Shown piece by piece: positions 2 through 42,595 of a stretch of 64,000 nt of DNA (position 1 is the first letter of the stretch; every line of letters begins with the position of its first letter). The position numbers and the translations under genes were made by a program. Under the pieces are notes generated by a model, which saw only the letters and a program-made list of their open reading frames with translations, was not told where the DNA came from and ran no database searches. Location of the stretch: positions 160,001-224,000 of the forward strand of contig JAHPZA010000010.1 in the NCBI GenBank assembly GCA_019058445.1. Direction: 5' to 3'. Origin of the DNA: Promethearchaeota archaeon (GTDB taxonomy: Archaea; Asgardarchaeota; Lokiarchaeia; Sigyniarchaeales; SOKP01).

Positions 2-940
2 TTAAACTCTATCTCATTTTCAATATTAATGACTAATTATAATAATGCCGAATATATTGAAGAAGCAATAGAAAGTGTAATTTCTCAAACTTATTCAAAC
101 TGGGAATTAATTATTGTTGATGATTTTTCCTATGATAATTCAATCAAGAAGATTAAATCATATTTAAGTGATAGTAGAATTAAATTAATTATCCATAATG
201 AAAATATGGGTTATGGAAAAGCACTAATAACTGCCATCGATAAAGCCTCTAACCTTATAATTGGAATTCTTGACTCGGATGATAAACTTGATAGAAACAC
301 TTTAAAATTATTTGCTGAAGCATATCAAAAAAATCCTGAATTTGGTTTCATATATAGCAATTTATGGGTATGTGATTCAAAATTACAGAATCCTAAAATC
401 AATATTCAATTTGGAGATATTGATCCTAAAAAAACTAACCTTTTAGAAAGAAGAACTTCACATTTTAAAACTTTCAGAAGAGAGCTTTATTACAAAACGA
501 ATGGATTCGATCCAAATCAGTCTACCTGTGTGGATGCTGATATTATTTTTAAATTAGAAGAAATCACTAAATTAAAATATATTGATAAGCCCTTATACTA
601 TTATAGGGTACACCAAAAAGGAGTATCAAGAAAATATTTTTTTAATAATCAACTTGAAGATTATATATCAAAACTAAATGCTTTTAATAGAAGATTAAAT
701 ACAAATATACCAAATTTAAAAATTAGTGATCTTAAAAAATTATATTACAAGTTAACATTTTTTAAAATAATTAAATTTTGTAAAACAACGAAAAACTTCT
801 TCAAATTATATAGAATTAAAGATTCAATTAAAAATATAAAGAAAAAAACTCCAGCTTTTTTAATATACCAAATCACTGAAAAATATAAATCCTTAAAAAA
901 GAAATATTTATATTGGTTCGAATTTAAAAAAGTTCTTTAG
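2..940 (+). CDS. Glycosyltransferase family 2 (5' end probably outside the window)
   Basis: Motifs SILMTNYN..EYIEEAIESV, IIVDDFSYD, LDSDD and LYYYRVH. The frame is open from base 2 (LNSISFSIL-MTNYN), so the first GT-A strand lies upstream of the ATG at 29. Confidence 0.9.
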   Translation, partial: LNSISFSILMTNYNNAEYIEEAIESVISQTYSNWELIIVDDFSYDNSIKKIKSYLSDSRIKLIIHNENMGYGKALITAIDKASNLIIGILDSDDKLDRNTLKLFAEAYQKNPEFGFIYSNLWVCDSKLQNPKINIQFGDIDPKKTNLLERRTSHFKTFRRELYYKTNGFDPNQSTCVDADIIFKLEEITKLKYIDKPLYYYRVHQKGVSRKYFFNNQLEDYISKLNAFNRRLNTNIPNLKISDLKKLYYKLTFFKIIKFCKTTKNFFKLYRIKDSIKNIKKKTPAFLIYQITEKYKSLKKKYLYWFEFKKVL

Positions 941-20793: not shown

Positions 20794-22116
20794 CTAGATT
20801 AAATCTTTATTTTTTACTCTTTTTATATTAACCTTGTTAAATTTAAGCAATAATAACGAGTACATCATTATACTTAAAAGAAAAATCCATCTTAAATAAT
20901 AGAAGATAATCAGAGGATATTCTTTTAATCCAGGGATATAGTCATATATAAAAAATGTACTCCACGAAAAAAATATGACCACAATTGAAGAAATCCCAAT
21001 TATGACTATTTTATTGCTTTTGAAAAATTCAATCCCATGAACATTCTCATTTAAATGAGGTACATATAATAGGAGCACTAAAGAATATAATATTAATCCC
21101 AATAAGAAAGAATAAGAAAAGATTCCAATAAAAATATAAGCAATTGCAAAATATCCAAACTTCTCTTCAATCATCAATTTATCATTAAACATCAGGATTA
21201 ACGATATGACAAAAAGAGCAATACTAAATACTATTGCGTAATTTCTTATTTCACTTGGAGATAACTCAAGCCATTCTCTTAAATATATGAGTTTGAAATA
21301 ATTAGGCCTACGTGACGGACGATTAAACCCATCTATAAAAGAGAATATTTGAAATGGATAGATAATAAATAAAAAATTCTGAATAAAAAACCATAGGATT
21401 AAAATAAGATATTTTCTCTTATTCTCTCTATTAAATACATTCTTAAGGGAAATATCCTGAAATACGTATATCAATAAAAAAAAAACAAAATAGGGGGCCA
21501 TACCGATAGCAAACACAATCAAACCATAGTTTAAAACATAAAAATCAAACTCCTTAGGCCTCTCCTCTATTCTATATTGAAGTTCTCTTCTAAGAATAAA
21601 AAGTAAAATTACAAATGTGAGATACTTTGATTGGTTAAAATAAAATTGATAATATACAAAATACCCGTTGGAAATTATTAAAAGGAATATAAATCTATGG
21701 ACTTTCTCTTTTGAATCCATAAAAACGAGGATCTTGTTGAATTCTCTTATAGAAAATATACCTAAAACATAATTTATAATAAAAAAAACATAATAAGCAA
21801 TTTCATACGGGATTAATGATACCGTAACAGCAAAAAATAGCGCAAAACTTGGCATATAACGAAAACCACGAACTTCATAAAGATTGGCAGGATTAATAAA
21901 GATTTGCCTGCCAGATTCATAAAAAATAGAAAAATCATTCATTTGAGGATCAAAATCCCAGCTTACTAATGCGTAAATAGCCCATAAACCTATAAAAATA
22001 GGAGGAATTATTAAATATAAATTCTCTTTTATAAGATTTTTATGAAACAAACAAAATAAAATAATAATAAATATGAGGATAAAAATTGTCAAAAAAACTA
22101 TGATATAATTAAGCAA
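20794..22116 (-). CDS. GT87/DUF2029-like GT-C membrane glycosyltransferase
   Basis: Polytopic membrane protein with DFSIFYESG...LY...FRYMPSFALFF, matching the GT87 N-terminal loop pattern. Confidence 0.7.
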   Translation of the reverse strand: MLNYIIVFLTIFILIFIIILFCLFHKNLIKENLYLIIPPIFIGLWAIYALVSWDFDPQMNDFSIFYESGRQIFINPANLYEVRGFRYMPSFALFFAVTVSLIPYEIAYYVFFIINYVLGIFSIREFNKILVFMDSKEKVHRFIFLLIISNGYFVYYQFYFNQSKYLTFVILLFILRRELQYRIEERPKEFDFYVLNYGLIVFAIGMAPYFVFFLLIYVFQDISLKNVFNRENKRKYLILILWFFIQNFLFIIYPFQIFSFIDGFNRPSRRPNYFKLIYLREWLELSPSEIRNYAIVFSIALFVISLILMFNDKLMIEEKFGYFAIAYIFIGIFSYSFLLGLILYSLVLLLYVPHLNENVHGIEFFKSNKIVIIGISSIVVIFFSWSTFFIYDYIPGLKEYPLIIFYYLRWIFLLSIMMYSLLLLKFNKVNIKRVKNKDLI

Positions 22117-22645: not shown

Positions 22646-24328
22646 TTAATAAATCATTTCAGGAGGCGGAGGTTTCAAACAAAAACCACATTTCCCAAAT
22701 GATTTAATCGTTTGTTCCCAACAATGTTTATGATAAGCTCGCTCACAGTGCGGACATTCAACATGACACGATTCTCTTCGCCCTGCAATTCTTATACCAC
22801 ACGTAGGGCATTCTATTTTATGACATATAACACATGCTACCACAGAAACTTCGAATATTTTCTCTGAAATTAAATTAAATAAATCAATTAAATAGCTATA
22901 AGGAGTCCACTCCTCAAAAAAATCCTTGAATGACGATTGGAGATCAGACTTGATTTTTTCATGAGTATCTATCTCAAACTCATTTAAAACTTTTATATTC
23001 GGCATTTTCATAGGATAATCTTTCGGTAAATTTATCTGAAACTCAAATGTAATGTCTTGAGTTTTCATTTTCCCTTTCATATTTAGCTTTAAAGTTTGGG
23101 TGGTATTTTCATATTTCAAATCCTTATAATGCTCATTTAATAATTCAATTTCAAAATTTATCCGTGAATTCTTATCTACAAGCCACGCGATTTCTCTAAT
23201 AATTTCGACGGGCTCAGATTCATTTTCTTTCCAATTTTTGTAAGAATTTAAAGAATTAATCGGTGTGTGAATAATATTCTGCAACTCAGAGGATAAAATA
23301 ACCTCAGGCGGCTTAGGATAGGCCGTCAAATCAAGTTCTAATACATACTCTTTAAATCCATAAGTCACTAAATGAACCTTTAATTTCGTAATTTCACCCT
23401 CTATTTCTTCACATTTATATTCATTAAGGATTTTCTTAGCCTCATTTTCAATATGTGTTATAATTTGCAGATTATTTTCGATTTCATGCAAAATATCGAT
23501 GATATGCACTGGTTTCTTGACATTCCATTTCTTTAGCATATTTATTGATTCATATGGATTTCCCAAAATGTTTATAAGTTGCTCTGGCAGTGATATGATG
23601 GGTTTTTGTGGATATTCCATAAAATTTATGTCTATTATGAAAGTTTTTGTTATAGTTAGAGTCATATATATTGTAATATCAGCAGGATTTTGCCCTTTTT
23701 GGTCATATGCATAGTACTGCTGTATCAATCCTAATTCTGTACTAATTTCTACACCAATTGGCTGAGGTTCTTCAATACTCTCTTCATATTTTTCTTGTTG
23801 TGTTGTTTTTGAACTCTCTATTGGATAATCTTCAGCTTTTGAGGGGACTTGATCGGTAGGTTCTGAATAAAATAAGGCATCACTAGAATTGATTTGAATA
23901 TTGTTCTCGAGTTCAGGAGGGTAAGCATCAAGATCAGGGGTAATATACTCCTCAGAATCTGCCTGTTCAATTTTTACTTCTGATATTTGAACCGGTTGTT
24001 GAACATTAGTCGTTTTTTTCATTGTTTCTTGTATCTTAAGATTTAACTCTTTTAAAATATCAACTACCGCTGAACCGGGAGTCCACATTCTCAACTTGTT
24101 TAACTTTACATTACCTAATAAATTTTTTATCGCATTATGATATATAAGCTGAGGGGGAGAATCGGGAAAATCTTCACCGAACTTAATCTCTAATTCATAT
24201 TTCTTCTCTGGTGTCTCATACACATGGCCGTATAAATGCGCAATATTCCCTGACACCATCCAAAAAGAAAATTCTGAAGCGATTTTTTGCGCTTCTTTCA
24301 AAATTCGTTGTCCATCCATAGAATTCAC
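22646..24328 (-). CDS. Multi-UEV/RWD (four E2-like folds) plus C-terminal C4HC3 RING protein; FANCL-like putative E3 ligase
   Basis: Four ~95-105 aa repeats, each with [FY]PxxP(P) followed by a W (FPDSPP/WTP, YPQKP/WN, YPKPP/WK, YPMKMP/WTP) and no E2 catalytic Cys. C-terminus CVIC..CPTC..CH..CPHC..YHKHC..FGKCGFC. Confidence 0.75.
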   Translation of the reverse strand: MNSMDGQRILKEAQKIASEFSFWMVSGNIAHLYGHVYETPEKKYELEIKFGEDFPDSPPQLIYHNAIKNLLGNVKLNKLRMWTPGSAVVDILKELNLKIQETMKKTTNVQQPVQISEVKIEQADSEEYITPDLDAYPPELENNIQINSSDALFYSEPTDQVPSKAEDYPIESSKTTQQEKYEESIEEPQPIGVEISTELGLIQQYYAYDQKGQNPADITIYMTLTITKTFIIDINFMEYPQKPIISLPEQLINILGNPYESINMLKKWNVKKPVHIIDILHEIENNLQIITHIENEAKKILNEYKCEEIEGEITKLKVHLVTYGFKEYVLELDLTAYPKPPEVILSSELQNIIHTPINSLNSYKNWKENESEPVEIIREIAWLVDKNSRINFEIELLNEHYKDLKYENTTQTLKLNMKGKMKTQDITFEFQINLPKDYPMKMPNIKVLNEFEIDTHEKIKSDLQSSFKDFFEEWTPYSYLIDLFNLISEKIFEVSVVACVICHKIECPTCGIRIAGRRESCHVECPHCERAYHKHCWEQTIKSFGKCGFCLKPPPPEMIY

Positions 24329-24526: not shown

Positions 24527-27500
24527 ATGTACCAAAAATCAAAAAATAAGCATTTAATATCCTTAATAATATTAATTACCCTTATGTTTATTTTTTCTTC
24601 ATTAACAAACCAAAATTATTTAATAAACTCTAATAATTCTATTTCTGATTATAAGAAGGAATCTGATGAAGAAGATATTAAATCGATCAATCAGTATCCG
24701 GTAATTTCAGATATCAATTATATTAATAGCAAATATAATATATCTGACTGGTGGAATACAACTTTTAGATATCGCATTTGCATAGAATTAGAAGAAATCG
24801 ATTCTATCAACCGATACCAACCATTAGACATATTTTTAGTGTTTCAAGAAAATGAACATTTTGTAAATACATCCCGGTTGGTAAGTTATAATGCGACAGG
24901 ATTGAATGAATGGAGCAATCCAGTACCTATTCAATTATGGAACATAACCTATTGCCAAAATACAAATTATATAAAGACCTGTACAATAACTTTTATAGCG
25001 AATATAACAGCTAATTCGAATAAATTGTACTTCTTTTACTATAATGATAATAATGAAGGAATTGAAATTCCAAATTATAAAACCGAATTTTCTACTATTT
25101 TATCGAATGGAAAACTTAATGTGACTGTTGGACCTCAAGGATCAAAATATCAAGCTTTAATTGAAGAAGGTTATGGTATATCCGAATTTCAAAAAGATGG
25201 AATTAATTATCATACAAAATATTCATTAACTCCTGAGAAGCAGTTAAATCATCAATCTGTTGAGTTATTATTACATTGTGACGAAGAGAGTGGTTCAGTG
25301 ATTTATGACTCTTCTTATAATGAGCTTGAAGGAGATCTCATAGGAAATTCAGAATTTAACATAGGTGTCTTACATAATGGTATAAAATTTGATGGAATTG
25401 GTGATTATATCACATTTGATGATAAATTAAACAGACCATTTGGATCCACAAGTAAAGCATTTACGATTACAATGTGGATTATGCCTACTTCATTGAGTAA
25501 TTCGAGTAGTAATCATGGTGTTATGAATTGCTTTATGGCAAAAGCCAGTAAACCCTATAGTGATAATTTTGAATTAGGAATATTTAAAGAAAATAATACA
25601 CACGGTTTGTTGCATGTATATATTGGAACGGCACTTATACATAAGCAATCGATATATGGTGATGTAATGAGTAATCCAATTTTAACTAATGAGTGGAACT
25701 TTATCGCTGTTAGATATTTTGAAGGAAATGTTGATGTTCAAATTAATGATGTTATTTATGGAAAAGATATAAATAATACAGAACCTTGGGATGGATCCGT
25801 ATATCTTGACCAAGCTAGCGGAAGTCATTTTACATTAGGAGGCACATTAGACAGTGACATCTATTATAATGGAACTTTGGATGAGATTGTTGTATATAAT
25901 AGCTCAATTAGCAATGTTGAAATAAATAATAACAAATTAGCAAAAAAAAAATCATCTATTAATTCTATAATCGAAATCGAGAGTGGTATTATCTTTTCTA
26001 GATATAAAATCCTCTGGAATCCTATTTTTGATATGAATATTGAAGATATTATTACATTCTATAATGATTATAATCTTTGGAATATTTATCGGAGTATATA
26101 TTTTGATAATCCATTTGATCCTGATAAAGCCTCTATGAATGCTCTAAATACGTATTATAATTTAACTGAAATATACAACCAGCAAGAGGGTAAGTATTTT
26201 TATGATAGTAAGGTTAAACAAAATATTATTTCAGCAGGATTTAACGTAGAAAATTATTCCATAATTCATATCCCGAAACCTTATAACGTGAGTTTTGGAA
26301 TTTTTATAGCAGATTATATGGTTTCTGATATTTTATATACTTCTGTATCTGAATTTAAAGGAAAATTAACCTATAACAAGAATATTACAGAATTTACACC
26401 AGGTTCTATTAATGACTTTGATAATAATGATGGAGGGAGTAATTTCAAATTAAATATTGATTTATGGGAATTTATTGATACCATTAATCAGTCAGGAAGT
26501 TTGAATGACAATGATTTATTAAACTATTTCAATAATACTTTAGTTTCACTAAGAAATCCCATAGATATTAAAATTTACCATCAAGAAGCTTTATTTTATA
26601 CATTAGTAATCCATGTTGAGGATATAGATAATAACCCCGTTAATCAAGCCACAGTTTCTCTTTATAACTTGACGAATAATGGAAATATAGATCAATGCAT
26701 ATCAAAACAAAAAACAAGTTTAGGGGGTAATACTACTTTTAAATATCTCAAAAACGATACTTATACTGTAAATTTAACCTATGAGAAGTATGGTCAACCT
26801 GCTTTTCAGGTTATTCATAATCCTGTTAATATAACAGTAAATGAAACAAACTCAGACAGATTTGGTAAAATTACTTACAATTTCTACAATGTAAGTCTTA
26901 CCTCTCTCAAGATGAAAGTGCAAAGAATTGACCCTGATACACATGAAATTAAAGAGCCTGTTGTAAACGCTAATGTATCATTTTGGATCAATAATGGGAG
27001 TGGGAATAAACATATAGGTTATGAGTTAACTGATATTTCTGGTATGGCAATATTTCAGTGGAGAAATTTTTCCTCTGCTAACGATGGAAATATCACTTTT
27101 GCGATAATCTGGTATGACAATCCACATAATATTTCTACAGAGGGAGATTTACTTAAAGAAAATTCAACTCATATCACGTTATATTTTTATAGGGGAAATA
27201 TTATTGTTGTCAATTTGACATCTTATAAATTTGCAACCGCTCTTGTGGAATCTATCCCTGATGGTGTATACATTGGAGATGAAATAACCTTCCAAGTGAA
27301 CTATTCTTATACCATAAATTACACGGATATAAAACCTATAGAAAATGCAAGAGTATATTATTATATTAAGATCGATAATACAAATATAAGTTCAAAATTA
27401 ATCGAATTCAATGAGACAACAATAAAGGGGACTTATAGTACAAAGATTAATACTTCTAATCCTGAAGATCCAAATATTAATTTTTTAGCAGAAATTTCCT

Positions 27501-28702
27501 ATAGGATGGTTATTCACGCTTCTAAAGCAGGATATATCCCTACTACGACAATTATATTATTTGAACTCTTATTTAAAAGCACCAATTTAACCTCTGATCA
27601 AAATTATAGAGAAGTTGTTTGGAATGAAAATTTTACTTTAGAAGTATATTATGAAGATATACATAATTTACCTTATAAAGGAATTGATGGAGCTTCAGTT
27701 AATTATTCGGTTATTGGAATGCCGAATATTAATGGTTCTATTTTCCCAAATGGAATAGATGGGTGGTATCAACTTGAATTAAATAGTTCAATTTTTAATA
27801 TTACAGGTGAATATGATATAAAGATTACAGCAAATAAAAAATTCTATGAATTTAAAACTATTTTTATTGAAATAAAAATCTTAGCAAGACCGACTTTAAT
27901 TAATGGGAAACCGCAGTTACAAAACAAGATATATAACTTGTATTTTGGGGAAATGAGAAATTTTACTATATCTTATACAGATGAGTTTTTAAATGAGACT
28001 ATTATTGACCTTGATGATCAGTCATATATATGGAAGATATATGATGTCGATTTTAAATTAATTGCTCAGGGTGAAAGAAATCTAATTTTAAATGAAGAAA
28101 ATCTTTATGTTTTAGATTCTAAGGATTTCCGTAATTTTCTTGGAACAATTACTTTTGAAATAATTTTATTTAAAATGAACTATGAAGAAAAAGAAATTAA
28201 ACTTATATATAATATTGTTGAAAATGAATTTGAATATGAATTAAGTACAGGTTTTAAAGAGAAGAATATAGAAATGGAAAAAGACATTTCGAAAAAATTA
28301 AGAATTAAGCTTTTTACTCCTTCTTTAGGAAATGTTCCTTTAACTGGAGCAAAAGTTATTTTGAATATTAAAGATAAAGATTATGATTTTATAGAAATTG
28401 AGGATGGCTTATATGAATTAGATTATAAACAAGAAGAAGTTGATACAACTTTTTTTAAATCTGAGTATTTTCAAGGTAAAATAGATATAACTATATATGG
28501 ATATGAAGATAAGAATATCAATGTAAATATTATTATTAAAAGAGAAGAGATTTTTCCAGGAGTACCTATATTTTACTTTTTGCTATTTTTAGGGGCAATC
28601 TTTTTTGTATTAGGAATTACCATAATAGATAAATTAATCAAAATAGAATCTTTTACTATATTAATAAAGAAACTTAAAAAGAATAACGTAATGAAAAAAT
28701 AA
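24527..28702 (+). CDS. Large membrane-anchored cell-surface glycoprotein (DUF2341-like N-terminus, LamG/ConA-like domain, Ig/CnaB-like repeats)
   Basis: N-terminal signal/TM, DWWNTTFRYR, LamG motifs (FDGIGDYI, FTITMWI, WNFIAV, YNGTLDEIVVYN), repeated 'P[VI]..A.V' and 'ASKAGY/ANKKFY' Ig-like motifs, C-terminal TM with basic tail, many NxS/T sequons. Confidence 0.8.
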   Translation: MYQKSKNKHLISLIILITLMFIFSSLTNQNYLINSNNSISDYKKESDEEDIKSINQYPVISDINYINSKYNISDWWNTTFRYRICIELEEIDSINRYQPLDIFLVFQENEHFVNTSRLVSYNATGLNEWSNPVPIQLWNITYCQNTNYIKTCTITFIANITANSNKLYFFYYNDNNEGIEIPNYKTEFSTILSNGKLNVTVGPQGSKYQALIEEGYGISEFQKDGINYHTKYSLTPEKQLNHQSVELLLHCDEESGSVIYDSSYNELEGDLIGNSEFNIGVLHNGIKFDGIGDYITFDDKLNRPFGSTSKAFTITMWIMPTSLSNSSSNHGVMNCFMAKASKPYSDNFELGIFKENNTHGLLHVYIGTALIHKQSIYGDVMSNPILTNEWNFIAVRYFEGNVDVQINDVIYGKDINNTEPWDGSVYLDQASGSHFTLGGTLDSDIYYNGTLDEIVVYNSSISNVEINNNKLAKKKSSINSIIEIESGIIFSRYKILWNPIFDMNIEDIITFYNDYNLWNIYRSIYFDNPFDPDKASMNALNTYYNLTEIYNQQEGKYFYDSKVKQNIISAGFNVENYSIIHIPKPYNVSFGIFIADYMVSDILYTSVSEFKGKLTYNKNITEFTPGSINDFDNNDGGSNFKLNIDLWEFIDTINQSGSLNDNDLLNYFNNTLVSLRNPIDIKIYHQEALFYTLVIHVEDIDNNPVNQATVSLYNLTNNGNIDQCISKQKTSLGGNTTFKYLKNDTYTVNLTYEKYGQPAFQVIHNPVNITVNETNSDRFGKITYNFYNVSLTSLKMKVQRIDPDTHEIKEPVVNANVSFWINNGSGNKHIGYELTDISGMAIFQWRNFSSANDGNITFAIIWYDNPHNISTEGDLLKENSTHITLYFYRGNIIVVNLTSYKFATALVESIPDGVYIGDEITFQVNYSYTINYTDIKPIENARVYYYIKIDNTNISSKLIEFNETTIKGTYSTKINTSNPEDPNINFLAEISYRMVIHASKAGYIPTTTIILFELLFKSTNLTSDQNYREVVWNENFTLEVYYEDIHNLPYKGIDGASVNYSVIGMPNINGSIFPNGIDGWYQLELNSSIFNITGEYDIKITANKKFYEFKTIFIEIKILARPTLINGKPQLQNKIYNLYFGEMRNFTISYTDEFLNETIIDLDDQSYIWKIYDVDFKLIAQGERNLILNEENLYVLDSKDFRNFLGTITFEIILFKMNYEEKEIKLIYNIVENEFEYELSTGFKEKNIEMEKDISKKLRIKLFTPSLGNVPLTGAKVILNIKDKDYDFIEIEDGLYELDYKQEEVDTTFFKSEYFQGKIDITIYGYEDKNINVNIIIKREEIFPGVPIFYFLLFLGAIFFVLGITIIDKLIKIESFTILIKKLKKNNVMKK

Positions 28703-28730
28703 AAAAAATTCCCTCAAAAAATTAGATTTC

Positions 28731-30881
28731 TTATCCCGAAGCTAACTTTCGCAAACTAAAAAATGTACCAAAAAATAAGAAGAGAATAATAAAGGTGATT
28801 AAGTATTGCTTCTTTTTCTTCATGATCTCCTTAAAATAAGTATTCTGAATAATGATTAAATTAAATACAATTAAAAAAGGTAAAAATCTGGAGTTTAATA
28901 GATAAAATGCAGTAAAAACCTCTCCAGCTAGAAATATAGCGACCATAATAGACGCAGTAGCTAATATTGATAAAATGTAATAATTTTGTTTTAAGTTATC
29001 TTTTTCATAAAAACAAATGCCATAAAAAAATAAAAATAAATTAAATATAATGATAGAATAATTTAATATTAATTCGATTATTACTAGTAAAAGTTCTTTT
29101 TCAAGTAGAAATTGGAAAATGAATTGATTAATAAAGAGAATTATAAAAAAAAATATCGGGATTATTGTATACCTAAGATACTTATTATTGTATAAGTATT
29201 GTATTATATTATGTATTTTTTTCAAAAAAGAAAAGAAAAATCTAAAAAAATAATTTAAGAGATTATAAAATTTAAGTATAAGTAAATAACAACCTATAAT
29301 ATAAAAGATTACTAAAAGCGTTATAATCATTATTATTATTAAACTAAAAGAGAAACCTCCTTTTAATAATGGCAGATCTATAATCACAATAAATAAGTAA
29401 CTCTCAAATAAAGAGGAAAGAAAGGGAATTACCTTAAATAAATAATAAGAGATATGAGCAAAAAATTCTTGAATAATGTACCATAAAATTGTTAACATAT
29501 ATAATAAAATTCCATTTGCTAATAAATTATATTTTAGTTTTTTACTTGAAAACCAATATATATTGTTTTGTTTTAATTTTCTTACGCCAAAAAAAAGAAA
29601 ATAAAAATTATAAATTACCACTAAAATAATAAAATAAATAGGTTCTTCAAAGTGTGATAAACAAAGAAAAAAGAAAAGTAAAAATATCATTCCACCCCCT
29701 ACAATTTTAAGTTTAAATTTCTTAATTAAATTAAAATCATAAAACTCAGAAATTAAAACGAAGAAAATAAACATAGTCAATGGTTTTCCTGTAGCATAAC
29801 GGGCAGATTTAGCAAATTGGGAAATAAAAAGCACAATAATAGTTAGGAATATTAAATTTTTATTTTGTTCAGCATTTTCCTTTAAATTTTTTTCGAATAT
29901 TGAATAAATAAAAAATGGTAATGACAGATAAACTATTGGAAAAATATACCACATAACAAAATAGAGATTCATTTTCGTAGATTCCATAAGAATTATTATA
30001 GTAAAAATTCCTGTAGTATATCTATATGGATAAATTATATTAGGATCATATGCGGTTAAAAAAAAGTTATAATCTGAATTAGCATTAATTCCCCTCTTCT
30101 TATACCCATGTAAAGCAATGGAATTTAAATAAGCATCCCAAGATAAATTGTTTTTAACTTGAAGATGAGGTAGAATCCATAAAACATAAATGAATAAAAA
30201 AATAGAGATTAAAATTAAATACTTGTTTTTGGAAAAAAAAATAAGTGAAGTCAAGGAAGATATTGAAATTACTAAAAAAATATAAAATTGGATAGGTATT
30301 CTTCTGAAAAAAGTGAAGTTATCCTGGTAATCGCGATAATTTTGAGAATAATCATTATTTGGTAAATAACTATAAAAAGCTGATAAACACATAAAAAATA
30401 ATGATACTAAAAAAATTGATAAAATAAATAAAATCTTTAAATTTATTTTTTCTCTTATTATGTTAAATTTAAATCTTATCTCGTAAGAAGAATCTTTTCT
30501 CTTTTCAATATTATATTCAGAAAAAAATATTAAGGATAAAATAAAAATTAAATTCAGAATCTGAATTGATGATATTAAATAAATACCTTCGAACTTAAAA
30601 CCAGTATTGCCGCCCGAAAAATAATTGTAAAGAAGAAGATAACTAAAAAACATAAAAATATTTATAATTGCTAGACTAAGAACTGTCGAATAGCCTATTT
30701 TTTCAATTTTACTTGATTTAGGTCTAATTATTGCTATAAAATTATAGCCTGGTAAAAATAGGGTACATAGAATTCCTAAAATAAGGATTATTGGTTGTAA
30801 AAGGATTGAAAATAAGATAAGATACCAATAAATAAATACTATGAGAATCTCAATATATAAAAACCTTCTATAAAAATTCAT
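28731..30881 (-). CDS. Polytopic membrane protein, putative GT-C glycosyltransferase/polymerase
   Basis: Many TM segments, LFLPGY motif, acidic loop SWDAY; located within the glycan cluster. Confidence 0.5.
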   Translation of the reverse strand: MNFYRRFLYIEILIVFIYWYLILFSILLQPIILILGILCTLFLPGYNFIAIIRPKSSKIEKIGYSTVLSLAIINIFMFFSYLLLYNYFSGGNTGFKFEGIYLISSIQILNLIFILSLIFFSEYNIEKRKDSSYEIRFKFNIIREKINLKILFILSIFLVSLFFMCLSAFYSYLPNNDYSQNYRDYQDNFTFFRRIPIQFYIFLVISISSLTSLIFFSKNKYLILISIFLFIYVLWILPHLQVKNNLSWDAYLNSIALHGYKKRGINANSDYNFFLTAYDPNIIYPYRYTTGIFTIIILMESTKMNLYFVMWYIFPIVYLSLPFFIYSIFEKNLKENAEQNKNLIFLTIIVLFISQFAKSARYATGKPLTMFIFFVLISEFYDFNLIKKFKLKIVGGGMIFLLFFFLCLSHFEEPIYFIILVVIYNFYFLFFGVRKLKQNNIYWFSSKKLKYNLLANGILLYMLTILWYIIQEFFAHISYYLFKVIPFLSSLFESYLFIVIIDLPLLKGGFSFSLIIIMIITLLVIFYIIGCYLLILKFYNLLNYFFRFFFSFLKKIHNIIQYLYNNKYLRYTIIPIFFFIILFINQFIFQFLLEKELLLVIIELILNYSIIIFNLFLFFYGICFYEKDNLKQNYYILSILATASIMVAIFLAGEVFTAFYLLNSRFLPFLIVFNLIIIQNTYFKEIMKKKKQYLITFIILFLFFGTFFSLRKLASG

Positions 30882-30986
30882 TTATTTGAATATTCTCATT
30901 TTATAGCTTTAAAATATTAAATGTTACTTAGTTTTTATATTATGGATATTAACTTAGATAGTGTTAATTTAATTAATCTAATGATT

Positions 30987-31682
30987 TTAATTGGATTTTT
31001 TTTGGGCAACAATTACACAACATTTACCAAAAATATGAAATCTCTTTCTTAATAAAACAGAATTTATAAAAGGAAATTCTACAGCCTCTACTTGGAGTAT
31101 TCTTAAACCAGTATCTCTAATCATTTTCATCCATCCAAAGGATGAATGTGAAAATATATGATAAGGAGATTTACCAATACGTATTTTAAACTTTTCAAAT
31201 AGTCCCGGACCGCTAAAAATTAATATACCATTATTTTTTAAAAGATGATTTATTGAATTCAATACTTTGCAAGCATTCTTTTCTGAAAGATGTTCAAGCA
31301 CATCTAAAGCAGTAATATAGTTAAATTTCATATTATTAAATAACTTGTCAATCTCAAGTATATCTCCCCTTATTATTTTGAAATTTTCCTTTTGAAATTT
31401 TTTTATACACATGTTTATTGATTCTTTATCTAAATCTATTCCATAAATCTCTTCAAATTTATTTTTTACTAATTCTATTAACGCACCAGTTCCCATTCCC
31501 AAATCTAAGAGATTTTTAGATTTCTTGATATAAGTATTGACAATCCTTATTTTTTTATACATTAATTTATTTTTTTTTTTGTAATTCTTATCTAATTGTT
31601 TAAGATTTAATTTTTTAAATGTCATCATCAACAATTTTTTTTTCTTTTTTTTTATATTCAAAAAAAAACTAAAAACATTCAA
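30987..31682 (-). CDS. Class I SAM-dependent methyltransferase
   Basis: Motifs LLDLGMGTG, GIDLD, DVLEHL and LKNNGILI. The true start is probably the ATG-ATG near 31628. Confidence 0.88.
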   Translation of the reverse strand: MNVFSFFLNIKKKKKKLLMMTFKKLNLKQLDKNYKKKNKLMYKKIRIVNTYIKKSKNLLDLGMGTGALIELVKNKFEEIYGIDLDKESINMCIKKFQKENFKIIRGDILEIDKLFNNMKFNYITALDVLEHLSEKNACKVLNSINHLLKNNGILIFSGPGLFEKFKIRIGKSPYHIFSHSSFGWMKMIRDTGLRILQVEAVEFPFINSVLLRKRFHIFGKCCVIVAQKKSN

Positions 31683-32937
31683 TTTGTTTTAACAGCAATT
31701 TAAGTTTCTCAATATCAACTAGAATATTATTTCCTATACTGTAATCTTCCCTATTTTTTGAAAGCGGTCTTCCTTCACCAAGAAGATAATAATAATCTAA
31801 GTTTATTTGATTACTTAAAGCAAAATAACAAGTATTTATATATCTGGGAAAAAAAATTTCGATTACTCGCGTTTTTGGTTTACAAAATACAAGATTAACC
31901 AATCCAGCTCCATGGGGGGCAATAATAATTTTGGCGGATTGAAAAATTTCTACTTGTTTTATAAATTCAATATCCTCAAGAAAGACTTTCTTAAATCCAT
32001 ATCTTGATAAAAAGTTAAAAACCCTTTCTTCATTTATAATTTTTCTTTTAGTTGCTTTATTTCTAGAAATATAAATTCTTTCAAATGACTTGTCATAATT
32101 TTTAATTTCTGGTAAGAATTTTTTACGTAAAAATTCACATGCCCAATCAGGCATATTGCCAGAAACATTATTAATCCATGATGGAACAATCAAAATTGAT
32201 GCTTCAAGATATAAGTTATCATCACTTGGAATAATTTTTTCTTTATCAATACCTAATATTTTTAGTGTTTGATCCTGATATAATTTGTTGGAATAATTGA
32301 TGATGTATTTATCAATCTTTAAATCTATATAATCTATTAGATATAATCTTGGTAATACATCAAAAAACCAATGAAAAAATGTATCACCTCTGTCGGTTGC
32401 TAAAACTCCTACAACATTTTTTGTTTTAATTAATTTTGGAAGTTTGAATCTCCTGAAAATACGATTTTCAATTATTCTTGATCCTAATTGCTTAGAGACA
32501 TCCGATAATAATTTTCCATCAGGAGTTATAATTATAGCATTTTTTCCCCACACCCTTCCATTAGGCATAGAAAAAACATATGTTGCGCTTAATTTTGTTT
32601 GAAGTTCATCACGAAATTTCCAGTGAATTTTCTTTTCTAAGCATTTTGGTTCTTTCCTTTCAATGATTTTAGAAGGAAAAATATCTATTAATTCTAAATT
32701 GTAATTTTCCTTATTTATCTCAATCCATTTCTTAGAATGATAAATGTCAATCGGGAACGGTAATATTATTTTTAAAAAGGGAAATAAGGAATAAATTAAT
32801 TTTCTAATGAAAAAAGCAAGTCTAGTTACAAATTTGACAAAATTAATATAAAATTTTACTAAAGGATTAAAAATTGGTTTCTCGAGCATAATATTTTCCA
32901 TTAACTGCATAAGTCTCATGATCCGTCCCATTCTCAT
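31669..32937 (-). CDS. Glycosyltransferase family 61 (DUF563)
   Basis: Motifs FFHWFFDVLPRL, RIYISR, RKIINE, IIAPHGAGLVN and VIEIF. Confidence 0.88.
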   Translation of the reverse strand: MRMGRIMRLMQLMENIMLEKPIFNPLVKFYINFVKFVTRLAFFIRKLIYSLFPFLKIILPFPIDIYHSKKWIEINKENYNLELIDIFPSKIIERKEPKCLEKKIHWKFRDELQTKLSATYVFSMPNGRVWGKNAIIITPDGKLLSDVSKQLGSRIIENRIFRRFKLPKLIKTKNVVGVLATDRGDTFFHWFFDVLPRLYLIDYIDLKIDKYIINYSNKLYQDQTLKILGIDKEKIIPSDDNLYLEASILIVPSWINNVSGNMPDWACEFLRKKFLPEIKNYDKSFERIYISRNKATKRKIINEERVFNFLSRYGFKKVFLEDIEFIKQVEIFQSAKIIIAPHGAGLVNLVFCKPKTRVIEIFFPRYINTCYFALSNQINLDYYYLLGEGRPLSKNREDYSIGNNILVDIEKLKLLLKQIECF

Positions 32938-33077
32938 TTAAATTTCTGTTTCTGTTATACTTAATCCTATATAATCATATAATAAAACAATTCTAAATCA
33001 TATGGATTTGCCAAATTAATAAATATTTTTTGCATTTTTGTTATTTCATTTTATAATATATTAGTCTTATTTAAGTA

Positions 33078-34169
33078 TCAGTAATTAATATTCTCAAAGA
33101 CTCTTAGACTTTCTTCAATAACTTGATCCATATTATAATATTTATATTGGGCTAAACGACCAACAATAATAAGATTCTTAATCTTATCTGCTTCCTTTTT
33201 ATACATTTCAAATAGTCTATAATTTATATTTCGTGGTATGGGATAGAAAGGTTTTCCATTAGTGCATGGAAATTCTTTTACAATAGTTGTTTTAGAGTTT
33301 TTTTGACCAGTTGCATGCTTTATTTCAATAATTCTTGTAAATTCATAGTTATTTGGATAGTTAATTTGAACCCAATCCTGGTAATATTCTTTATCATAAT
33401 TTTCATGTTTAAATCTTAGAGATCTATATGGTAGCTTACCATATTTATAATTAAAGAATTCATCAATACGTCCCGTATAAATTAAATATTTATATTTGAT
33501 TTTATTTTTTATTTTCCAATAATTAGTATTTAATTTTATTTTGATATTCGAATTATTTAATAAATTTTGGAATAATTCATGATATCCATTAAGTGGCATA
33601 GCTTGTATTTTATCTGTAAAATATCGATCATCATTATTAATTCTAATAGGAATTCTTCCACAAACAGAAGGATCTAATTGTTTTGGATTTAATCCCCATT
33701 GTTTTATAGTATAATTTTTAAAAAATTTTTTATAAATTTCCCAACCAACTTTTGAAATTACCTCTTCTTCTGAATTTTGAGGATTTTCAATGTCAATCCT
33801 CTTTTTCTTCAAAAATTCTTTAGCTTGCTTTTCAGTTTTTAAATTAATTTTAAAAAATTTATTTAGTGTTTCCCTATTTATTGGAATTGGATATAATTCA
33901 CCATTCACATAAGTTCTTATTTTATATTCATATGGCCTCCATTTCGTAAATTTTGATAAGTAATTATATACTTTCTTTGAATTTGTTCTGAAATAATGAG
34001 GGCCATATTTATGTACTAAAATGCCTATATCATTATAATAGTCATAACAATTACCACCTAAATGATTCCTTTTATCTATTATTAAGACCTTTTTATCTAA
34101 CTGAGAACTAATGCGTTCTGCTAAAACTGATCCTGCGAAACCTGCACCAACAATTAAAAAATCATACAA
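33078..34169 (-). CDS. glf: UDP-galactopyranose mutase
   Basis: Motifs IVGAGFAG, HLGGNCYD, HKYGPH, YTIKQWG, LPYRSL, PFYPIP and GRLAQYKYYNMDQ. Confidence 0.96.
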   Translation of the reverse strand: MYDFLIVGAGFAGSVLAERISSQLDKKVLIIDKRNHLGGNCYDYYNDIGILVHKYGPHYFRTNSKKVYNYLSKFTKWRPYEYKIRTYVNGELYPIPINRETLNKFFKINLKTEKQAKEFLKKKRIDIENPQNSEEEVISKVGWEIYKKFFKNYTIKQWGLNPKQLDPSVCGRIPIRINNDDRYFTDKIQAMPLNGYHELFQNLLNNSNIKIKLNTNYWKIKNKIKYKYLIYTGRIDEFFNYKYGKLPYRSLRFKHENYDKEYYQDWVQINYPNNYEFTRIIEIKHATGQKNSKTTIVKEFPCTNGKPFYPIPRNINYRLFEMYKKEADKIKNLIIVGRLAQYKYYNMDQVIEESLRVFENINY

Positions 34170-34170
34170 A

Positions 34171-35103
34171 TTACAAAAATTCTCTCTTTACAATTTCAAT
34201 TAAATCATTAGAATTATCAACATGAAATATTTTAGAACCTGATAATTTATGATACCAATTATAGGAATTGTATTTTAATTCAGCTCCTCTCATAGCTAAG
34301 ATTATATTTTTTCCGCCAAAATAACTAGTGAAAACGCAATTACCTCCTTGAACAGAAATAAATCTGTTACAATTTGCATAAATCATCATCTGAATTTGAT
34401 TATAGGATAAATCTTTATTATTTTTATTTAAATTTTGCATTGTAATAACATATGGAAATTGTTCTTTTAATATTGCAAAATCCTGAAAATTATGATCTCT
34501 TTGTTGATCTTCTGCTATATCTATTGAAGTTGGTCTATTATATATAATTTGATATTTTTTCTGAAGAATTTTAAATAATTCTTTTAAAATTTCAAGTGAA
34601 ATATAATTTACAGGTGGACCACTCCATTCAACAGTATATTTATTACCTATAACACAAATAGGATTATCCCATACAAAACGATTATTTTTATATATTTTTT
34701 TATATGGTGGAGGTTCCCACATTTTTTTATTAATTTTTTTTTTATGTATATGTCCAATTGGAAAACTTTTAACGTTTAAACATAATCTTTTTTTATCAAG
34801 TTCTGAATGATTTTTAGAGAAATAATATAAACATTTTGTATCTTTAACACCTCTAGTAAAAATTAATTTATTTCTTTTAAATAACCAATAAGCATATGGA
34901 ATAACTGCTATAAGTTCATATCCAAACTCTCCATAAAATTGTACATTTCTTCTTTTAAATATCTTCCAATAACTAAATATTAATGGTTTTATTATTATTC
35001 TAGGTAAATTTCTCCATAAAAATAAGATCTTCCATAAAAAAGTCCCAGGATTATTTTTATTAAAAATTAGTGTTTGTATCCTTTCAATTTTCCCTAATAT
35101 CAT
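34171..35103 (-). CDS. Hypothetical protein, possible divergent GT-B (GT9-like) glycosyltransferase
   Basis: GEFGYEL N-terminal motif; C-terminal IYANCNRFISVQGGNCVFTSYFG resembles the GT9 'A.LFIG.DSG..HLA.A.G' pattern; ends 1 nt before glf. Confidence 0.45.
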   Translation of the reverse strand: MILGKIERIQTLIFNKNNPGTFLWKILFLWRNLPRIIIKPLIFSYWKIFKRRNVQFYGEFGYELIAVIPYAYWLFKRNKLIFTRGVKDTKCLYYFSKNHSELDKKRLCLNVKSFPIGHIHKKKINKKMWEPPPYKKIYKNNRFVWDNPICVIGNKYTVEWSGPPVNYISLEILKELFKILQKKYQIIYNRPTSIDIAEDQQRDHNFQDFAILKEQFPYVITMQNLNKNNKDLSYNQIQMMIYANCNRFISVQGGNCVFTSYFGGKNIILAMRGAELKYNSYNWYHKLSGSKIFHVDNSNDLIEIVKREFL

Positions 35104-35543
35104 TTTAATTATATAATTTTTGTTTCTAAAAGAGTTTTAATTTAGATTAATTAAAGTTTAAATTGTTTTTAAACTATTGTACATGAATTTTTTACACTAT
35201 CCAATTGAGCTATTTTAATAGAGAATTCTCCAAATTCAGGTTCTAAAAATTTCTCTTAACTTAAACGTAAAAAATAAAGGATATCTTGCATTATATAATT
35301 AATATGTTATTGATTTAATTTTAAATTAAGCAGGCTAATAACTTTCAAACAGATAATATTTACTTATTAACTGTCTAAAAGAACGAAGCATTTCATTTCA
35401 GATCAATATGATTTGATATTACCTTTTTTTCTTCATTTTTTTGACTATTAAATTAATAGAAATAAAATAGGATTTGTTTTTTTCAGTAACGAAATACTCA
35501 AGAAATGCATACTTTAAATATTTTTATCAAAAAAAGGGAAATT

Positions 35544-37037
35544 TTAACTTATTTCTTCTTGAATTGTCCTATTTCTAAATAATTGAACTAAACTGATAAT
35601 TTCTTGCCATTTTAATTCCTGAAGTAAAAATAGTATAAGAGTAAAAAGCCCTAGACTAAATACTGATAAAACAAGAAAAAGAATTATTTGATTATCAAAT
35701 AGAAGAATAAAAATTTGATTTTTTATAAGGATAGTTAAAAGAATTATAAATAATGCTAAAGGTAAATGTAAAAAATTTCGCATACGCGGTTTTATTTTGA
35801 AAATTCTATATGAAAAATAATAACATAATAAGCACCATAAAATCCATGGAATAGTATTAGCAATAGCAAATCCAATACCACCCAAACCCAATGTTTTTAC
35901 ATGCCAAATAGATTTAGGAATTAGTATTATCATTAATGTTATTATTAAAATTTTTATTAATGAATTTATAATAGCATAAAGCTTTTGTCTTTTCCCTGAA
36001 AGAAATAGATATACTGTAGGGCGTGATAATCCAATAAAATAGGGAACAAAAATCATGATATTTAATATAGGGATAGAATTAGAATAATTTGGTAAAAAGA
36101 TGGAAAAGATGAATTCAGCATTTATTATTACTATTATTATAATCAATAAATAGAAAATTGAAAAATATTTTTCAATTTTATTTTTTAGAATGGTAATTGA
36201 ATTATAATCATTTTTTTCAAAATATTGAGAAGATAATACTAAATATAAAGGGACTACACTTGCCGATATTGATAGTAGTATCATTATTATATAACTGTCA
36301 ACTAGACTGACGTAGCCAAGAGTTTCATAACCAAACGAATAAGCAATAATAAAATTTCCGATATTGGCACATATGATAGTTATTATACAATATATAATCA
36401 ATGGATTTGTATCTTTTAAGAAAGTTATAATTGTTTTTTTTTCAGGTTTAGTAATCTTTATCTCATCCTTAGACAATATGATTAAACAGAGAAAAATTGT
36501 GAGATTAAGTATGAAATAAGAGAGAGAAAGAAAAAATAGCATAAAAAATGAATTTATATTGAGATTTACTAAAAAAATAATAAGTATGCTATGAATTGTA
36601 TTAGTAATTAGATATGGAAGTTCGGCTTTATAAACTTTAAAGCAAGTTTTTAAATGAGTAATAAATATGATATTAATAGCTACGAAAATCTTCGATAGTA
36701 GGATAAAAATACAAAACAGAAAGAATTCTGTTTTATAAATACTAAATATGAATAATAAGGAAATAGAGATGCTTATATTTAATAACAAAAAGAAAATTTT
36801 TAGTGTAAGATAAGAGCTAAAGGTTTCAGAATAATTTTTTTTTCCAGAATATTGATAATATATATTATCTAAGCCAACATCTATAAATAGAAAACCTATA
36901 TTAATAATACTATTTAAAAAAATCCAGAGTCCCAAAAAAGCAGGTGAAAAATTTAAAATAAGCAAATAAAAAGATATTATAGTTAAAATTCTAACTATTA
37001 GATTTGTAAAAATGGAAAAAATAAATTTATCTAACAT
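35544..37037 (-). CDS. Wzx/RfbX-type oligosaccharide flippase (MOP superfamily)
   Basis: About 12-14 TM segments, FIDVGL near TM2, LIPK...LGGIGFAIA motif. Confidence 0.8.
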   Translation of the reverse strand: MLDKFIFSIFTNLIVRILTIISFYLLILNFSPAFLGLWIFLNSIINIGFLFIDVGLDNIYYQYSGKKNYSETFSSYLTLKIFFLLLNISISISLLFIFSIYKTEFFLFCIFILLSKIFVAINIIFITHLKTCFKVYKAELPYLITNTIHSILIIFLVNLNINSFFMLFFLSLSYFILNLTIFLCLIILSKDEIKITKPEKKTIITFLKDTNPLIIYCIITIICANIGNFIIAYSFGYETLGYVSLVDSYIIMILLSISASVVPLYLVLSSQYFEKNDYNSITILKNKIEKYFSIFYLLIIIIVIINAEFIFSIFLPNYSNSIPILNIMIFVPYFIGLSRPTVYLFLSGKRQKLYAIINSLIKILIITLMIILIPKSIWHVKTLGLGGIGFAIANTIPWILWCLLCYYFSYRIFKIKPRMRNFLHLPLALFIILLTILIKNQIFILLFDNQIILFLVLSVFSLGLFTLILFLLQELKWQEIISLVQLFRNRTIQEEIS

Positions 37038-37170
37038 ATTTTTAGTTTAACCAAGCATTTATTATATTATTATATTCATAAATATACTTTGGAGCATTTT
37101 TATTATTAGCAGCTTTCTATAGCCTAAGAAAACTGAGCTATAGTTAAAGAATTGATGCCATTTTTTTTAA

Positions 37171-38346
37171 TTATTTTTCTAAAATTTTTTTATATAATTC
37201 ATAATGTTTCTTAGCATTAATTTCCCACGAGAAGTTACTTTTGACATATTCTCTAGCATAATCACCCATTTTTTTTTTGAGTTCCTCATTACTTAAGATA
37301 AGAATTAATTTCTCTTTCATTTCTATAATATCACCAAATTCAATTAAAAATCCGTTTTTCCCATTATTGATTATTTCTCTTGGACCCCAATGGTTTGATG
37401 CGATAACTGGGGTTTTACAAGCATTAGCTTCTAAAGCAACAAGTCCAAAAGTTTCAGATTTAGCTGGCATAACAACTACATCTGCCATAGAATAAATTTC
37501 AGGGAGATATCTCTTAGGTAAATGTCCTAATATTATAACGTCATGTTTTAAATTCATTTTTTGTATTAGATTCTCTAAGGTTGATTTATAACCAAAATCT
37601 CCGCCAGCTAATAATAATACCGTATCTGAGATTTCTTTTTTTAATAAAGAAAATGCATTAATCAAAATATCTATTCTCTTGTCCTTGAAAAGACGTCCAA
37701 CATATAAAACAATCTTTTTTTTTTCTAAATTGTATAATTTAATGAAATTAGAAGAATTTGAATGTTTAAAATGATTAATATCTATTCCATGTGGAATTAA
37801 ATAAATATTTTCTTTAGCAATTCCAAATCTTATTAAATATTCTGCTTCAAATTTAGTTACTACAATATAATTTATATCTAAAAAGGTATTTTTTATATTA
37901 CCTAAAGAAAGATCAATAATTCTTTGGTATAAATGCTGAAAATAATTTAAACTAAGAGTTATTCCTCCATGAGATGTAATAACTAACTTTTTTTTGTTTT
38001 TAATTAAAGCGACTAAACTTCCCATATCTTCTTGATAAGATCTTGGTGCATGAGAGTGAAAAATATCTATATTTTTACTATCTTTTAATAACTCTTTAAA
38101 TAATCCAAATGAAACTCTGTATTCCCTAAATCTCAAATATGAATTAAATCTTTTTATTATTAATTTTGGAGATACTTCATGAATTTTAGGAGCTTTTTTC
38201 GTTTCCTTAAAATCTAAAGCATTTGTTGTATAAATAATATTTCTAATAGGAAATGGTTTAAGAAATTTAGTCAACTCATTAATATGGACTGCTGGACCTC
38301 CATATTGACGAGAATAAATAGGAATTAATCTAGCTATATTTATCAT
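37171..38346 (-). CDS. Glycosyltransferase family 4
   Basis: Motifs YGGP, IPHGID, VGRL..DK and ETFGLVALEANAC. Confidence 0.93.
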   Translation of the reverse strand: MINIARLIPIYSRQYGGPAVHINELTKFLKPFPIRNIIYTTNALDFKETKKAPKIHEVSPKLIIKRFNSYLRFREYRVSFGLFKELLKDSKNIDIFHSHAPRSYQEDMGSLVALIKNKKKLVITSHGGITLSLNYFQHLYQRIIDLSLGNIKNTFLDINYIVVTKFEAEYLIRFGIAKENIYLIPHGIDINHFKHSNSSNFIKLYNLEKKKIVLYVGRLFKDKRIDILINAFSLLKKEISDTVLLLAGGDFGYKSTLENLIQKMNLKHDVIILGHLPKRYLPEIYSMADVVVMPAKSETFGLVALEANACKTPVIASNHWGPREIINNGKNGFLIEFGDIIEMKEKLILILSNEELKKKMGDYAREYVKSNFSWEINAKKHYELYKKILEK

Positions 38347-38416
38347 TATAGGTTATTAAATTAAAATTAATATATTCTTTAATATTAGCAATTTTATAAT
38401 TAATATAAAATGTTTA

Positions 38417-40126: not shown

Positions 40127-40269
40127 AACTTATCCGAAATTTTTCTTTGAATTTAAATAAATATTTTCTATTGTTAAAATATTTCGAAAAACAAAACCTT
40201 CAAGATAAATAACAATGAGACTATAAAAAAATTGCTTGCTCAGATTTTACTACCTAAATCTTTCAATTG

Positions 40270-42569: not shown

Positions 42570-42595
42570 ATTTGCTTTCTATATTAGGATTTTTG
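42556..42595. repeat. Duplicated 5' end and upstream region shared with 46361..46400
   Basis: Exact 16-mer tcttggacattcatat (42556-42571 = 46361-46376) and exact 15-mer atattaggatttttg (42581-42595 = 46386-46400), with the same 9-nt spacing. Confidence 0.85.

Follow-up and report, generated by a model that had tools for sequence, protein, structure and literature searches.

One gene on the minus strand of the window analysed here, a 64,000-nucleotide stretch of contig JAHPZA010000010.1 from the Promethearchaeota archaeon assembly GCA_019058445.1 (class Lokiarchaeia), raises the question of whether these archaea encode a ubiquitin ligase built like eukaryotic FANCL. Non-catalytic derivatives of the ubiquitin-conjugating enzyme (E2), the RWD and UEV pseudo-E2 domains, are regarded as a eukaryotic expansion of the archaeal E2, and they build FANCL, BRE, kinetochore proteins (Knl1, CENP-O/P), Mediator, GCN2 and ESCRT-I. 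The original prediction, made from the letters of this DNA, had read the gene product as four such domains closed by a C4HC3 RING, and hence as a ubiquitin ligase (E3) or ubiquitin-binding scaffold possibly related to the ancestor of the Fanconi-pathway ligase. The results presented below indicate that the product probably serves the ubiquitin system of Lokiarchaeia as an E3 ligase of the RING type or as an E3-like adaptor.

In the list of open reading frames the gene spans 22646..24328 (-) and would encode 560 aa if begun at GTG 24328. The identical database copy (P0002) and all homologues begin three codons downstream, at ATG 24319, with the residues MDGQ or MDKQ, and this ATG is the probable start codon; residues are numbered throughout on P0002 (557 aa). 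Every motif quoted in the original prediction was recovered in this reading frame. A word-indexed search returned at least 316 homologues, the best 120 of which are full length, 55-76% identical and derived from metagenome-assembled genomes of Promethearchaeota or Lokiarchaeota, the homologues carrying database names such as hypothetical, 'E2 variant' or 'ubiquitin-protein ligase'. Across an alignment of 35 orthologues (A1, as distinct from the more diverse family alignment A2), 146 columns are invariant, including all the cysteines and histidines of the C-terminal tail. The number of homologues and these invariant columns demonstrate that the gene is real and under strong constraint; a scan of the protein against NCBIfam gave no match. 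The features of the gene, in window coordinates, are as follows.

22646..24319 (-): whole gene, 557 aa, with ATG at 24319 and stop codon at 22646-22648
24008..24319 (-): D1, aa 1-104, E2-like domain (UEV-type) without cysteine and without the C-terminal E2 helices (Pfam UQ_con; VIA)
23762..24007 (-): acidic, proline-rich disordered linker, aa 105-186 (predicted local distance difference test score, pLDDT, 25-43; hypervariable in A1)
23912..23953 (-): linker motif, aa 123-136, EEYITPDLDAYPPE (orthologue alignment)
23465..23761 (-): D2, aa 187-285, non-catalytic UBC/RWD-like domain, first half of the double-RWD unit (AlphaFold2 pLDDT 88-95; hhalign)
23126..23464 (-): D3, aa 286-398, non-catalytic UBC/RWD-like domain with long helices to D2 and D4 (AlphaFold2; hhalign; ESM Atlas)
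22850..23125 (-): D4, aa 399-490, canonical RWD directly ahead of the RING (Pfam RWD; VIA)
22649..22849 (-): predicted three-zinc RING, aa 491-557 (ligand pattern; profile and Pfam matches)

Four pseudo-E2 domains and their linker

Two of the domains are recognized by Pfam above the respective cut-offs, with UQ_con matching aa 33-125 at 42.5 bits (cut-off 27) and RWD matching aa 390-486 at 32 bits (cut-off 22.8). Modelled in full by AlphaFold2 (pLDDT 72), the protein is made up of four helix/beta-meander/helix units, with residues 105-186 disordered, and a second model, covering aa 187-557 and built on A2 (pLDDT 87.7, predicted template modelling score 0.68), folds D2-D4 as UBC/RWD domains at pLDDT 85-95. 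Comparison of the sub-alignments with hhalign gave probabilities of 96.8% for D1-D2, 97.5% for D2-D3 and 89% for D1-D3, with D4 more distant (77% to D1). In VIA structure searches, single domains matched E2, UEV and RWD structures at Z 10-12, D1 aligning with the E2 2h2y_B at Z 11.7 and a root-mean-square deviation (rmsd) of 2.2 over 98 aa, and the D4 region of the A2 profile matched E2 chains at E 3e-6.

The UBC fold and its YPxxxP-type turn are retained, the latter appearing in D2-D4 as turns of the YPxKP type (EYPQKP, AYPKPP, DYPMKMP) plus a Trp, and the catalytic cysteine and the HPN motif are lost. D1, D2 and D4 contain no cysteine at all, D3 contains a single non-conserved one in its first helix, and the catalytic-cysteine column is occupied by K or Q in the alignment to E2K. 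Since no cysteine is conserved and the catalytic column holds K or Q, all four of D1-D4 are pseudo-E2 (UEV/RWD) domains. The N-terminal E2-like domain lacking a catalytic cysteine and the three further tandem YPxxP/W domains of the original prediction were thus confirmed by the UQ_con match and by the modelled UBC/RWD folds of D2-D4, and its acidic, proline-rich linker of about 85 aa measures 82 aa (24% D/E, 10% P, isoelectric point 4.05) and is disordered in the model, with pLDDT below 50.

Among the orthologues the linker measures between 77 and 120 aa. Within it lies a short motif with five invariant residues (T127, P128, D129, Y133 and P134; consensus EEYITPDLNAYPP), the core of which, YITPDLxAYPP, is kept in four of five full-length relatives at 42-50% identity (P0123, P0124, P0126 and P0127) and is not evident in the fifth relative examined (P0128), the surrounding linker being unalignable. 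YITPDLxAYPP looks like a candidate docking peptide. It invites comparison with the P(T/S)AP and PxxP peptides bound by UEV domains, and a second copy, Y(I/L)TPS, occurs in the linker of many orthologues.

The C-terminal finger and the ubiquitin system

The C-terminal tail carries the ligand series C496xxC499-x4-C504xxC507-x10-C518-x3-C522xxC525-x4-H530-x-H532-C533-x10-C544xxC547, the members of which are invariant or near-invariant in the 35 orthologues. C496, C499, C522, C525, H530, C533, C544 and C547 make up a C4HC3 core with the spacing C-x2-C...C-x2-C-x4-H-x2-C-x10-C-x2-C, and C504, C507, C518 and H532 an inserted zinc site. In the wide family (39 diverse relatives) all eight core ligands are invariant except C522, which is kept in at least 90%; the hydrophobic residue of the C-x-[ILV]-C signature is likewise retained. 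Insert and fourth ligand vary together: of 167 sequences with the insert, 165 have H or C between ligands 5 and 6, and where it is absent (three sequences as scored) position 532 is A or N, counts that include many close kin and are not independent. In P0231, for which the script was misled by an upstream CxxC, the insert is absent by eye and position 532 is G. Read from the ligand pattern, the inserted third zinc site appears to follow the logic of Rbx1, in which the insert supplies three ligands and the fourth is a His placed between ligands 5 and 6, the Rbx1 site being C53/C56/C68 with H82.

Profile comparisons place the finger among RINGs. The RING of RCHY1 matched profile A2 at E 1.2e-4, and of 39 single RING segments searched against Pfam, 31 matched RH_dom, 30 Prok-RING_1 (best 5e-8), 23 zf-RING_2 (best 2.2e-4), 23 zf-rbx1 (best E 2.4e-4) and 17 zf-ANAPC11. 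The single-member scores shown for zf-rbx1, zf-ANAPC11 and Prok-RING_1 all lie under the curated cut-offs (10.6-18.8 bits against 31 for zf-rbx1), and the tail of the query itself gives weak Pfam zinc-finger matches. In the AlphaFold2 model the zinc domain contains beta-beta-alpha elements at pLDDT 71-90 and is spanned by the alignments to listerin, RNF25 and FANCL. Together, the ligand pattern, the RCHY1 match and the covariation of the insert point to a binuclear finger of the RING type that carries an additional zinc site, in keeping with the original prediction.

The same data bear on another explanation, namely a scaffold of the BRE/UEV type without catalytic activity, whose pseudo-E2 domains would bind ubiquitin or partner proteins and whose zinc domain would serve for interactions in the manner of a PHD, Rubicon-homology or IBR module and not for the recruitment of an E2. 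The ligands are spaced as in PHD fingers, the zinc domain has weak matches to RH_dom, IBR_1, PHD and C1, and D1 and D4 resemble UEV domains such as TSG101 (VIA Z 10-11). The best profile matches of the zinc domain, however, are real RINGs (RCHY1, Prok-RING_1, zf-RING_2 and zf-rbx1), the conserved C-x-[ILV]-C hydrophobic residue speaks against an interaction module of this kind, and so does the genomic position of one relative of the family, described next. On balance we regard a pure scaffold as improbable.

The relative in question, P0164, comprises three UBC folds and a C4HC3 RING without insert and matches profile A1 at E 6e-30. It is the first gene of a compact, co-directional operon on a metagenome contig of the Joint Genome Institute (L036:3923-9083), where it is followed by genes for ubiquitin (97 aa), the activating enzyme (E1), E2, a JAB protease and a second RING protein, in this order. 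Three other short relatives (P0146, P0161 and P0193) are encoded at loci outside ubiquitin operons. The genome to which the window belongs (4.6 Mb) was checked for ubiquitin, E1 and E2, as the original prediction had proposed, and holds ubiquitin, three separate E1(ThiF)-E2 pairs and a JAB protease. One pair belongs to an operon about 310 kb away on the same contig (C10:492284-498940) that encodes a 695-aa RING protein, a ubiquitin ending in ...STAG, E1, E2 and JAB. The other pairs lie at C10:384298-387083 and C9:220916-222508; the second pair measures 528 and 171 aa and the third 292 and 193 aa, and both of these E2s contain HPN...C.

These observations are consistent with a mechanism in which the three-zinc RING would bring in an E2 loaded with ubiquitin and belonging to one of the three E1-E2 pairs of the genome, and the rigid D2-D3 double RWD and the D4 RWD would serve as platforms holding a substrate or partner, as the double RWD of FANCL and the RWD of listerin and RNF25 do. 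D1, on its flexible acidic tether, might bind ubiquitin or the YITPDLxAYPP motif, leading to recruitment or to auto-inhibition. If active, the protein would add to the small RING proteins of the ubiquitin operons another class of archaeal E3, larger in size, and would offer a tractable model for the positioning of substrates by pseudo-E2 arrays.

Several points weigh against assigning the protein to a ubiquitin ligase. No ubiquitin-system gene adjoins the gene in the window or at three orthologous loci. The stretch is contained in four sediment-metagenome DNA runs, all from one study, and no RNA run is among the listed holders. The RING is modelled at a pLDDT of only 71-90, and the Loki clade departs from common RINGs in that its final zinc pair is CGFC instead of the usual CPxC and a conserved Trp follows directly after ligand 6; owing to this pair and to the position of the Trp, an E2-binding surface is not readable from the sequence. 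BRE, the second-best structural match, is itself a non-catalytic scaffold. A prediction of the complex of the RING (alignment A3, three zinc ions) with the operon E2 (alignment A4) scored 0.01 and counts neither for nor against this assignment.

The same type of RING, down to an FGKCGFCL-x-PPPE ending, also closes unrelated proteins, some of them membrane-anchored with beta-helix ectodomains, and since it terminates such unrelated proteins the predicted three-zinc RING is a mobile module in these archaea. In other genomes, P0175, P0179, P0172 and P0186 are membrane-anchored proteins that end in the same finger with FGKCGFCLExPP(S/P)EL, two of them having large ectodomains resembling a right-handed beta-helix together with a cytoplasmic zinc ribbon; they look like archaeal transmembrane RING ligases.

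Likeness to FANCL, BRE and other RWD proteins

Searches of the PDB with Foldseek placed FANCL first for both AlphaFold2 models, at E 1.2e-7 for the whole protein (7kzp_L) and at 1.3e-8 (9a0j_L) and 1.5e-8 (7kzp_L) for aa 187-557, and the match runs end to end, over about 400 columns of a 370-aa target. BRE/BRCC45 came second (6gvw_C; E 2.5e-7 and 7.5e-7 for the two models), with listerin (8aaf_e, 6.4e-5), fly FANCL (3k1l_A, 5.3e-4) and Knl1 at lower ranks. In ESM Atlas the nearest structures beyond the family's own cluster are FANCL clusters, D2-D3 superposing on FANCL_d2+d3 at rmsd 3.6-3.7 over 173-177 aa and on a cluster of the double RWD (DRWD) alone at a template modelling score of 0.64 by target. 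Language-model features likewise ranked FANCL clusters as the nearest outsiders, followed by listerin and RNF25-like proteins, at scores of 0.89-0.88 that fall below the 0.9 mark set for more than a lead.

The protein shares with the FANCL family the order of its domains (E2-like fold, double RWD and C-terminal C4HC3 RING) and the rigid DRWD/URD unit. The FANCL-like architecture is thus well supported by the models, FANCL being the best structural match over the whole length, ahead of BRE/BRCC45 and listerin, and this part of the original prediction stood. Lokiarchaeia already chain pseudo-E2 domains into rigid double-RWD units and combine them with a RING, a design comparable to that of FANCL, listerin and RNF25.

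The exhaustive VIA search gave a less specific picture, and further VIA runs returned mostly single-domain E2/RWD matches that say little on architecture. The top Z values belong to D4 alone: 12.3 with RWDD1, 11.9 with the SEA-complex chain 8adl_C, 11.3 with the RWD of GCN2 and 11.2 with RNF25 (11.2-11.6 across searches), so that D4, the best-scoring single domain, is closer to these proteins than to FANCL. D3-D4 aligned with the double RWD of Knl1 at Z 10.4 (rmsd 4.2 over 176 aa) and with the DRWD of FANCL (3zqs) at Z 9.1 (rmsd 7.2), and D4 together with the RING aligned with the RWD-RING of listerin at Z 9.0-9.2 over about 150 aa and with RNF25-like ESM Atlas clusters. The whole aa 187-557 model is colinear with FANCL (8..371 against 3..370, 297 aa, Z 8.8) at an rmsd of 24.6.

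Sequence comparisons yielded no comparable relationship. No match to FANCL_d2, FANCL_d3 or FANCL_C was found with Pfam in the query, in the A1 members or in 10 short relatives, FANCL_d1 gave matches at E 0.014 in two of the 35 orthologues of A1, and the 25 families most often matched by the 39 RING segments do not include FANCL_C. PDB sequence searches with the protein, A1 and A2 had E2s, Rbx1 and RCHY1 among the matches listed, and FANCL and BRE were not among them; the two profile searches were run at E up to 10 with the best 60 chains of each considered, one of them having 386 matches. BRE is the sole eukaryotic multi-UBC family with a sequence signal, the Pfam BRE profile giving matches at E up to 1 in four of the 35 orthologues of A1. 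Individual scans, which included P0047 from outside A1, scored 24.8-30.7 bits against a cut-off of 25.8, above it in three A1 members, and the matches cover just 55-75 or so of 320 profile positions. This signal and the second rank of BRE in Foldseek add to what speaks for the scaffold explanation weighed above.

Structural likeness of this kind could reflect true homology, whereby the protein and FANCL, perhaps also BRE, would descend from a common ancestor, a double-RWD and C4HC3-RING ligase already present in Asgard archaea before eukaryotes, with D1 or D2 as the counterpart of the E2-like fold (ELF) domain of FANCL. If that were true, the origin of this type of ligase would predate eukaryogenesis. 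Three methods that are in part independent of one another (Foldseek on the PDB, ESM Atlas fold search and language-model features) rank FANCL at the top, D2-D3 reproduces the rigid DRWD geometry over about 175 aa, the spacing of the RING core is the same (C-x2-C...C-x2-C-x4-H-x2-C...C-x2-C), the short relatives of 350-430 aa are FANCL-sized, and the BRE signal in four A1 members points the same way. Against this, there is no significant match to FANCL_d1, d2, d3 or FANCL_C, and FANCL is not among the best 60 chains of either PDB profile search. D2-D3 and D3-D4 both fit the FANCL DRWD, in two registers, and D3-D4 superposes more closely on Knl1 (rmsd 4.2) than on FANCL (7.2); both observations would be expected of generic tandem RWDs. 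The RING, moreover, clusters with Prok-RING_1, Rbx1 and APC11 instead of FANCL_C, and occurs on unrelated proteins; grouping of the RING with unrelated families had been named beforehand as the result that would speak against FANCL specifically, and this link is weakened accordingly.

Distribution and context also enter this assessment. Among 301 Asgard genomes sampled, full-length or three-domain matches occur in the family (most genomes), order and class of the window, and about 230 sampled genomes of other families, outside the window's class, contain no full-length or three-domain form and three weak single-domain matches. Hod-, Thor- or Hermodarchaeota appear as labels on some NCBI records of nearly identical proteins, and these labels were not relied on, because among the sampled genomes the family is found only in the window's class. 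No repair genes lie in the neighbourhood of the gene; no search aimed at the partners UBE2T, FANCD2 and FANCI was made. Owing to the missing sequence signal, the affinity of the RING to Prok-RING_1 and Rbx1 and the narrow distribution, common descent with FANCL is not favoured, and we consider it unlikely; the FANCL-like architecture may instead reflect independent assembly from E2-derived domains and an archaeal Prok-RING_1 finger. The kinship with the ancestor of the Fanconi ligase suggested in the original prediction retains the FANCL-like architecture and has neither sequence support nor a DNA-repair context.

Comparison with known systems helps to place the RING ligase or adaptor that we favour. 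FANCL (ELF, double RWD and C4HC3 RING; 7kzp_L, 9a0j_L, 3k1l and 3zqs) has in common with it a series of cysteine-less UBC folds followed by a C4HC3 RING. The archaeal protein differs in having four UBC folds where FANCL has three, with D1 on an 82-aa disordered tether, in the extra zinc site of its RING, in the arrangement of its domains relative to one another (whole-chain rmsd about 24) and in belonging to a family without significant sequence similarity to FANCL that is limited to one archaeal class. BRE/BRCC45 (6gvw_C, 6h3c_C), the scaffold of BRCA1-A and BRISC, likewise consists of tandem non-catalytic UBC folds, but has no RING and acts beside the JAMM protease BRCC36, whereas here a separate gene fuses a D2-type domain to JAB. 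Listerin/Ltn1 and RNF25 share with D4 and the RING the combination of a canonical RWD with a RING, but have a single RWD, a two-zinc RING and other N-terminal regions (HEAT repeats in listerin).

Prok-RING_1 is the archaeal and bacterial RING of ubiquitin operons. Together with Rbx1 and APC11 it shares with the archaeal finger the CxxC...C insert between ligand pairs 1 and 2 and the fourth ligand between ligands 5 and 6; Rbx1, however, has C-x-H-x2-H, whereas ligands 3-4 of the archaeal RING form C-x2-C and are separated from the His by four residues, as in PHD fingers and FANCL. The literature searched, on Asgard RWD, UEV and RING proteins together with structure-based surveys of eukaryotic signature proteins, does not describe this protein, and a single Asgard RWD-like sequence is mentioned in one study (PMC6601020). 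The ubiquitin operons of Asgard archaea and Caldiarchaeum are known to encode small RING E3s, along with a UEV-Vps23 system and UEV domains acting as ubiquitin sensors (PMC5654768; bioRxiv 10.1101/2023.07.25.550441). Like those operon RINGs, the finger analysed here comes from an archaeal genome in which an operon encodes ubiquitin, E1, E2 and JAB, but the gene lies outside that operon and its product carries four UBC folds. The contribution of the window consists of the orthologue itself, the covariation of the third zinc site, the D2-D3 register of the DRWD and the operon association of P0164.

Family variants and genomic surroundings

A scan of all 1.84 billion representatives retrieved only 172 proteins at E up to 0.001, among them full-length forms, forms of 350-430 aa with three UBC folds and a RING but no D1 (one of them labelled Helarchaeota), forms of 670-690 aa with a second, N-terminal RING-like finger, and proteins that have in common with the family the RING alone or a D2-type domain alone. 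In two proteins of other genomes, P0144 and P0148 (671-691 aa), the extra finger is RING-H2-like and precedes the first UBC fold, giving two RING-type fingers per chain. The genome of the window also encodes, at C3:387185-387844 (+), a 219-aa protein in which a D2-type pseudo-E2 (YPKKPK...W...) is fused to a JAB/JAMM protease (Prok-JAB 26.4 bits, HSHPS...D motif), an arrangement that recalls BRE with BRCC36. Such reuse, of the D2-type domain beside a JAB protease and of the RING on membrane proteins, counts in favour of the ligase or adaptor reading.

Genes for a TauE exporter, ATP sulfurylase, an alkaline phosphatase (AlkP)-type enzyme, adenosine 5'-phosphosulfate kinase and glycosyltransferases surround the gene, and the neighbours across the window and three orthologous loci are glycosyltransferases, sugar epimerases, a 3'-phosphoadenosine 5'-phosphosulfate module, methyltransferases and isoleucyl-tRNA synthetase. 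A functional link to these glycan and sulfate genes was considered and set aside, the association being read as shared synteny within one class. The gene is flanked on one side by 20794-22116 (-), encoding a polytopic membrane protein (440 aa, no match in Pfam), a counterpart of which (439 aa) adjoins the closest orthologue checked (locus L015), and on the other by 24527-28702 (+), encoding a 1391-aa secreted or anchored surface protein with a Laminin_G_3 domain. G+C content varies between 21 and 34% along the window; positions 28000-46000, which carry glycosyltransferase and methyltransferase genes, have 21-25% against 28-33% elsewhere, and this low-G+C segment may be a variable glycan island.

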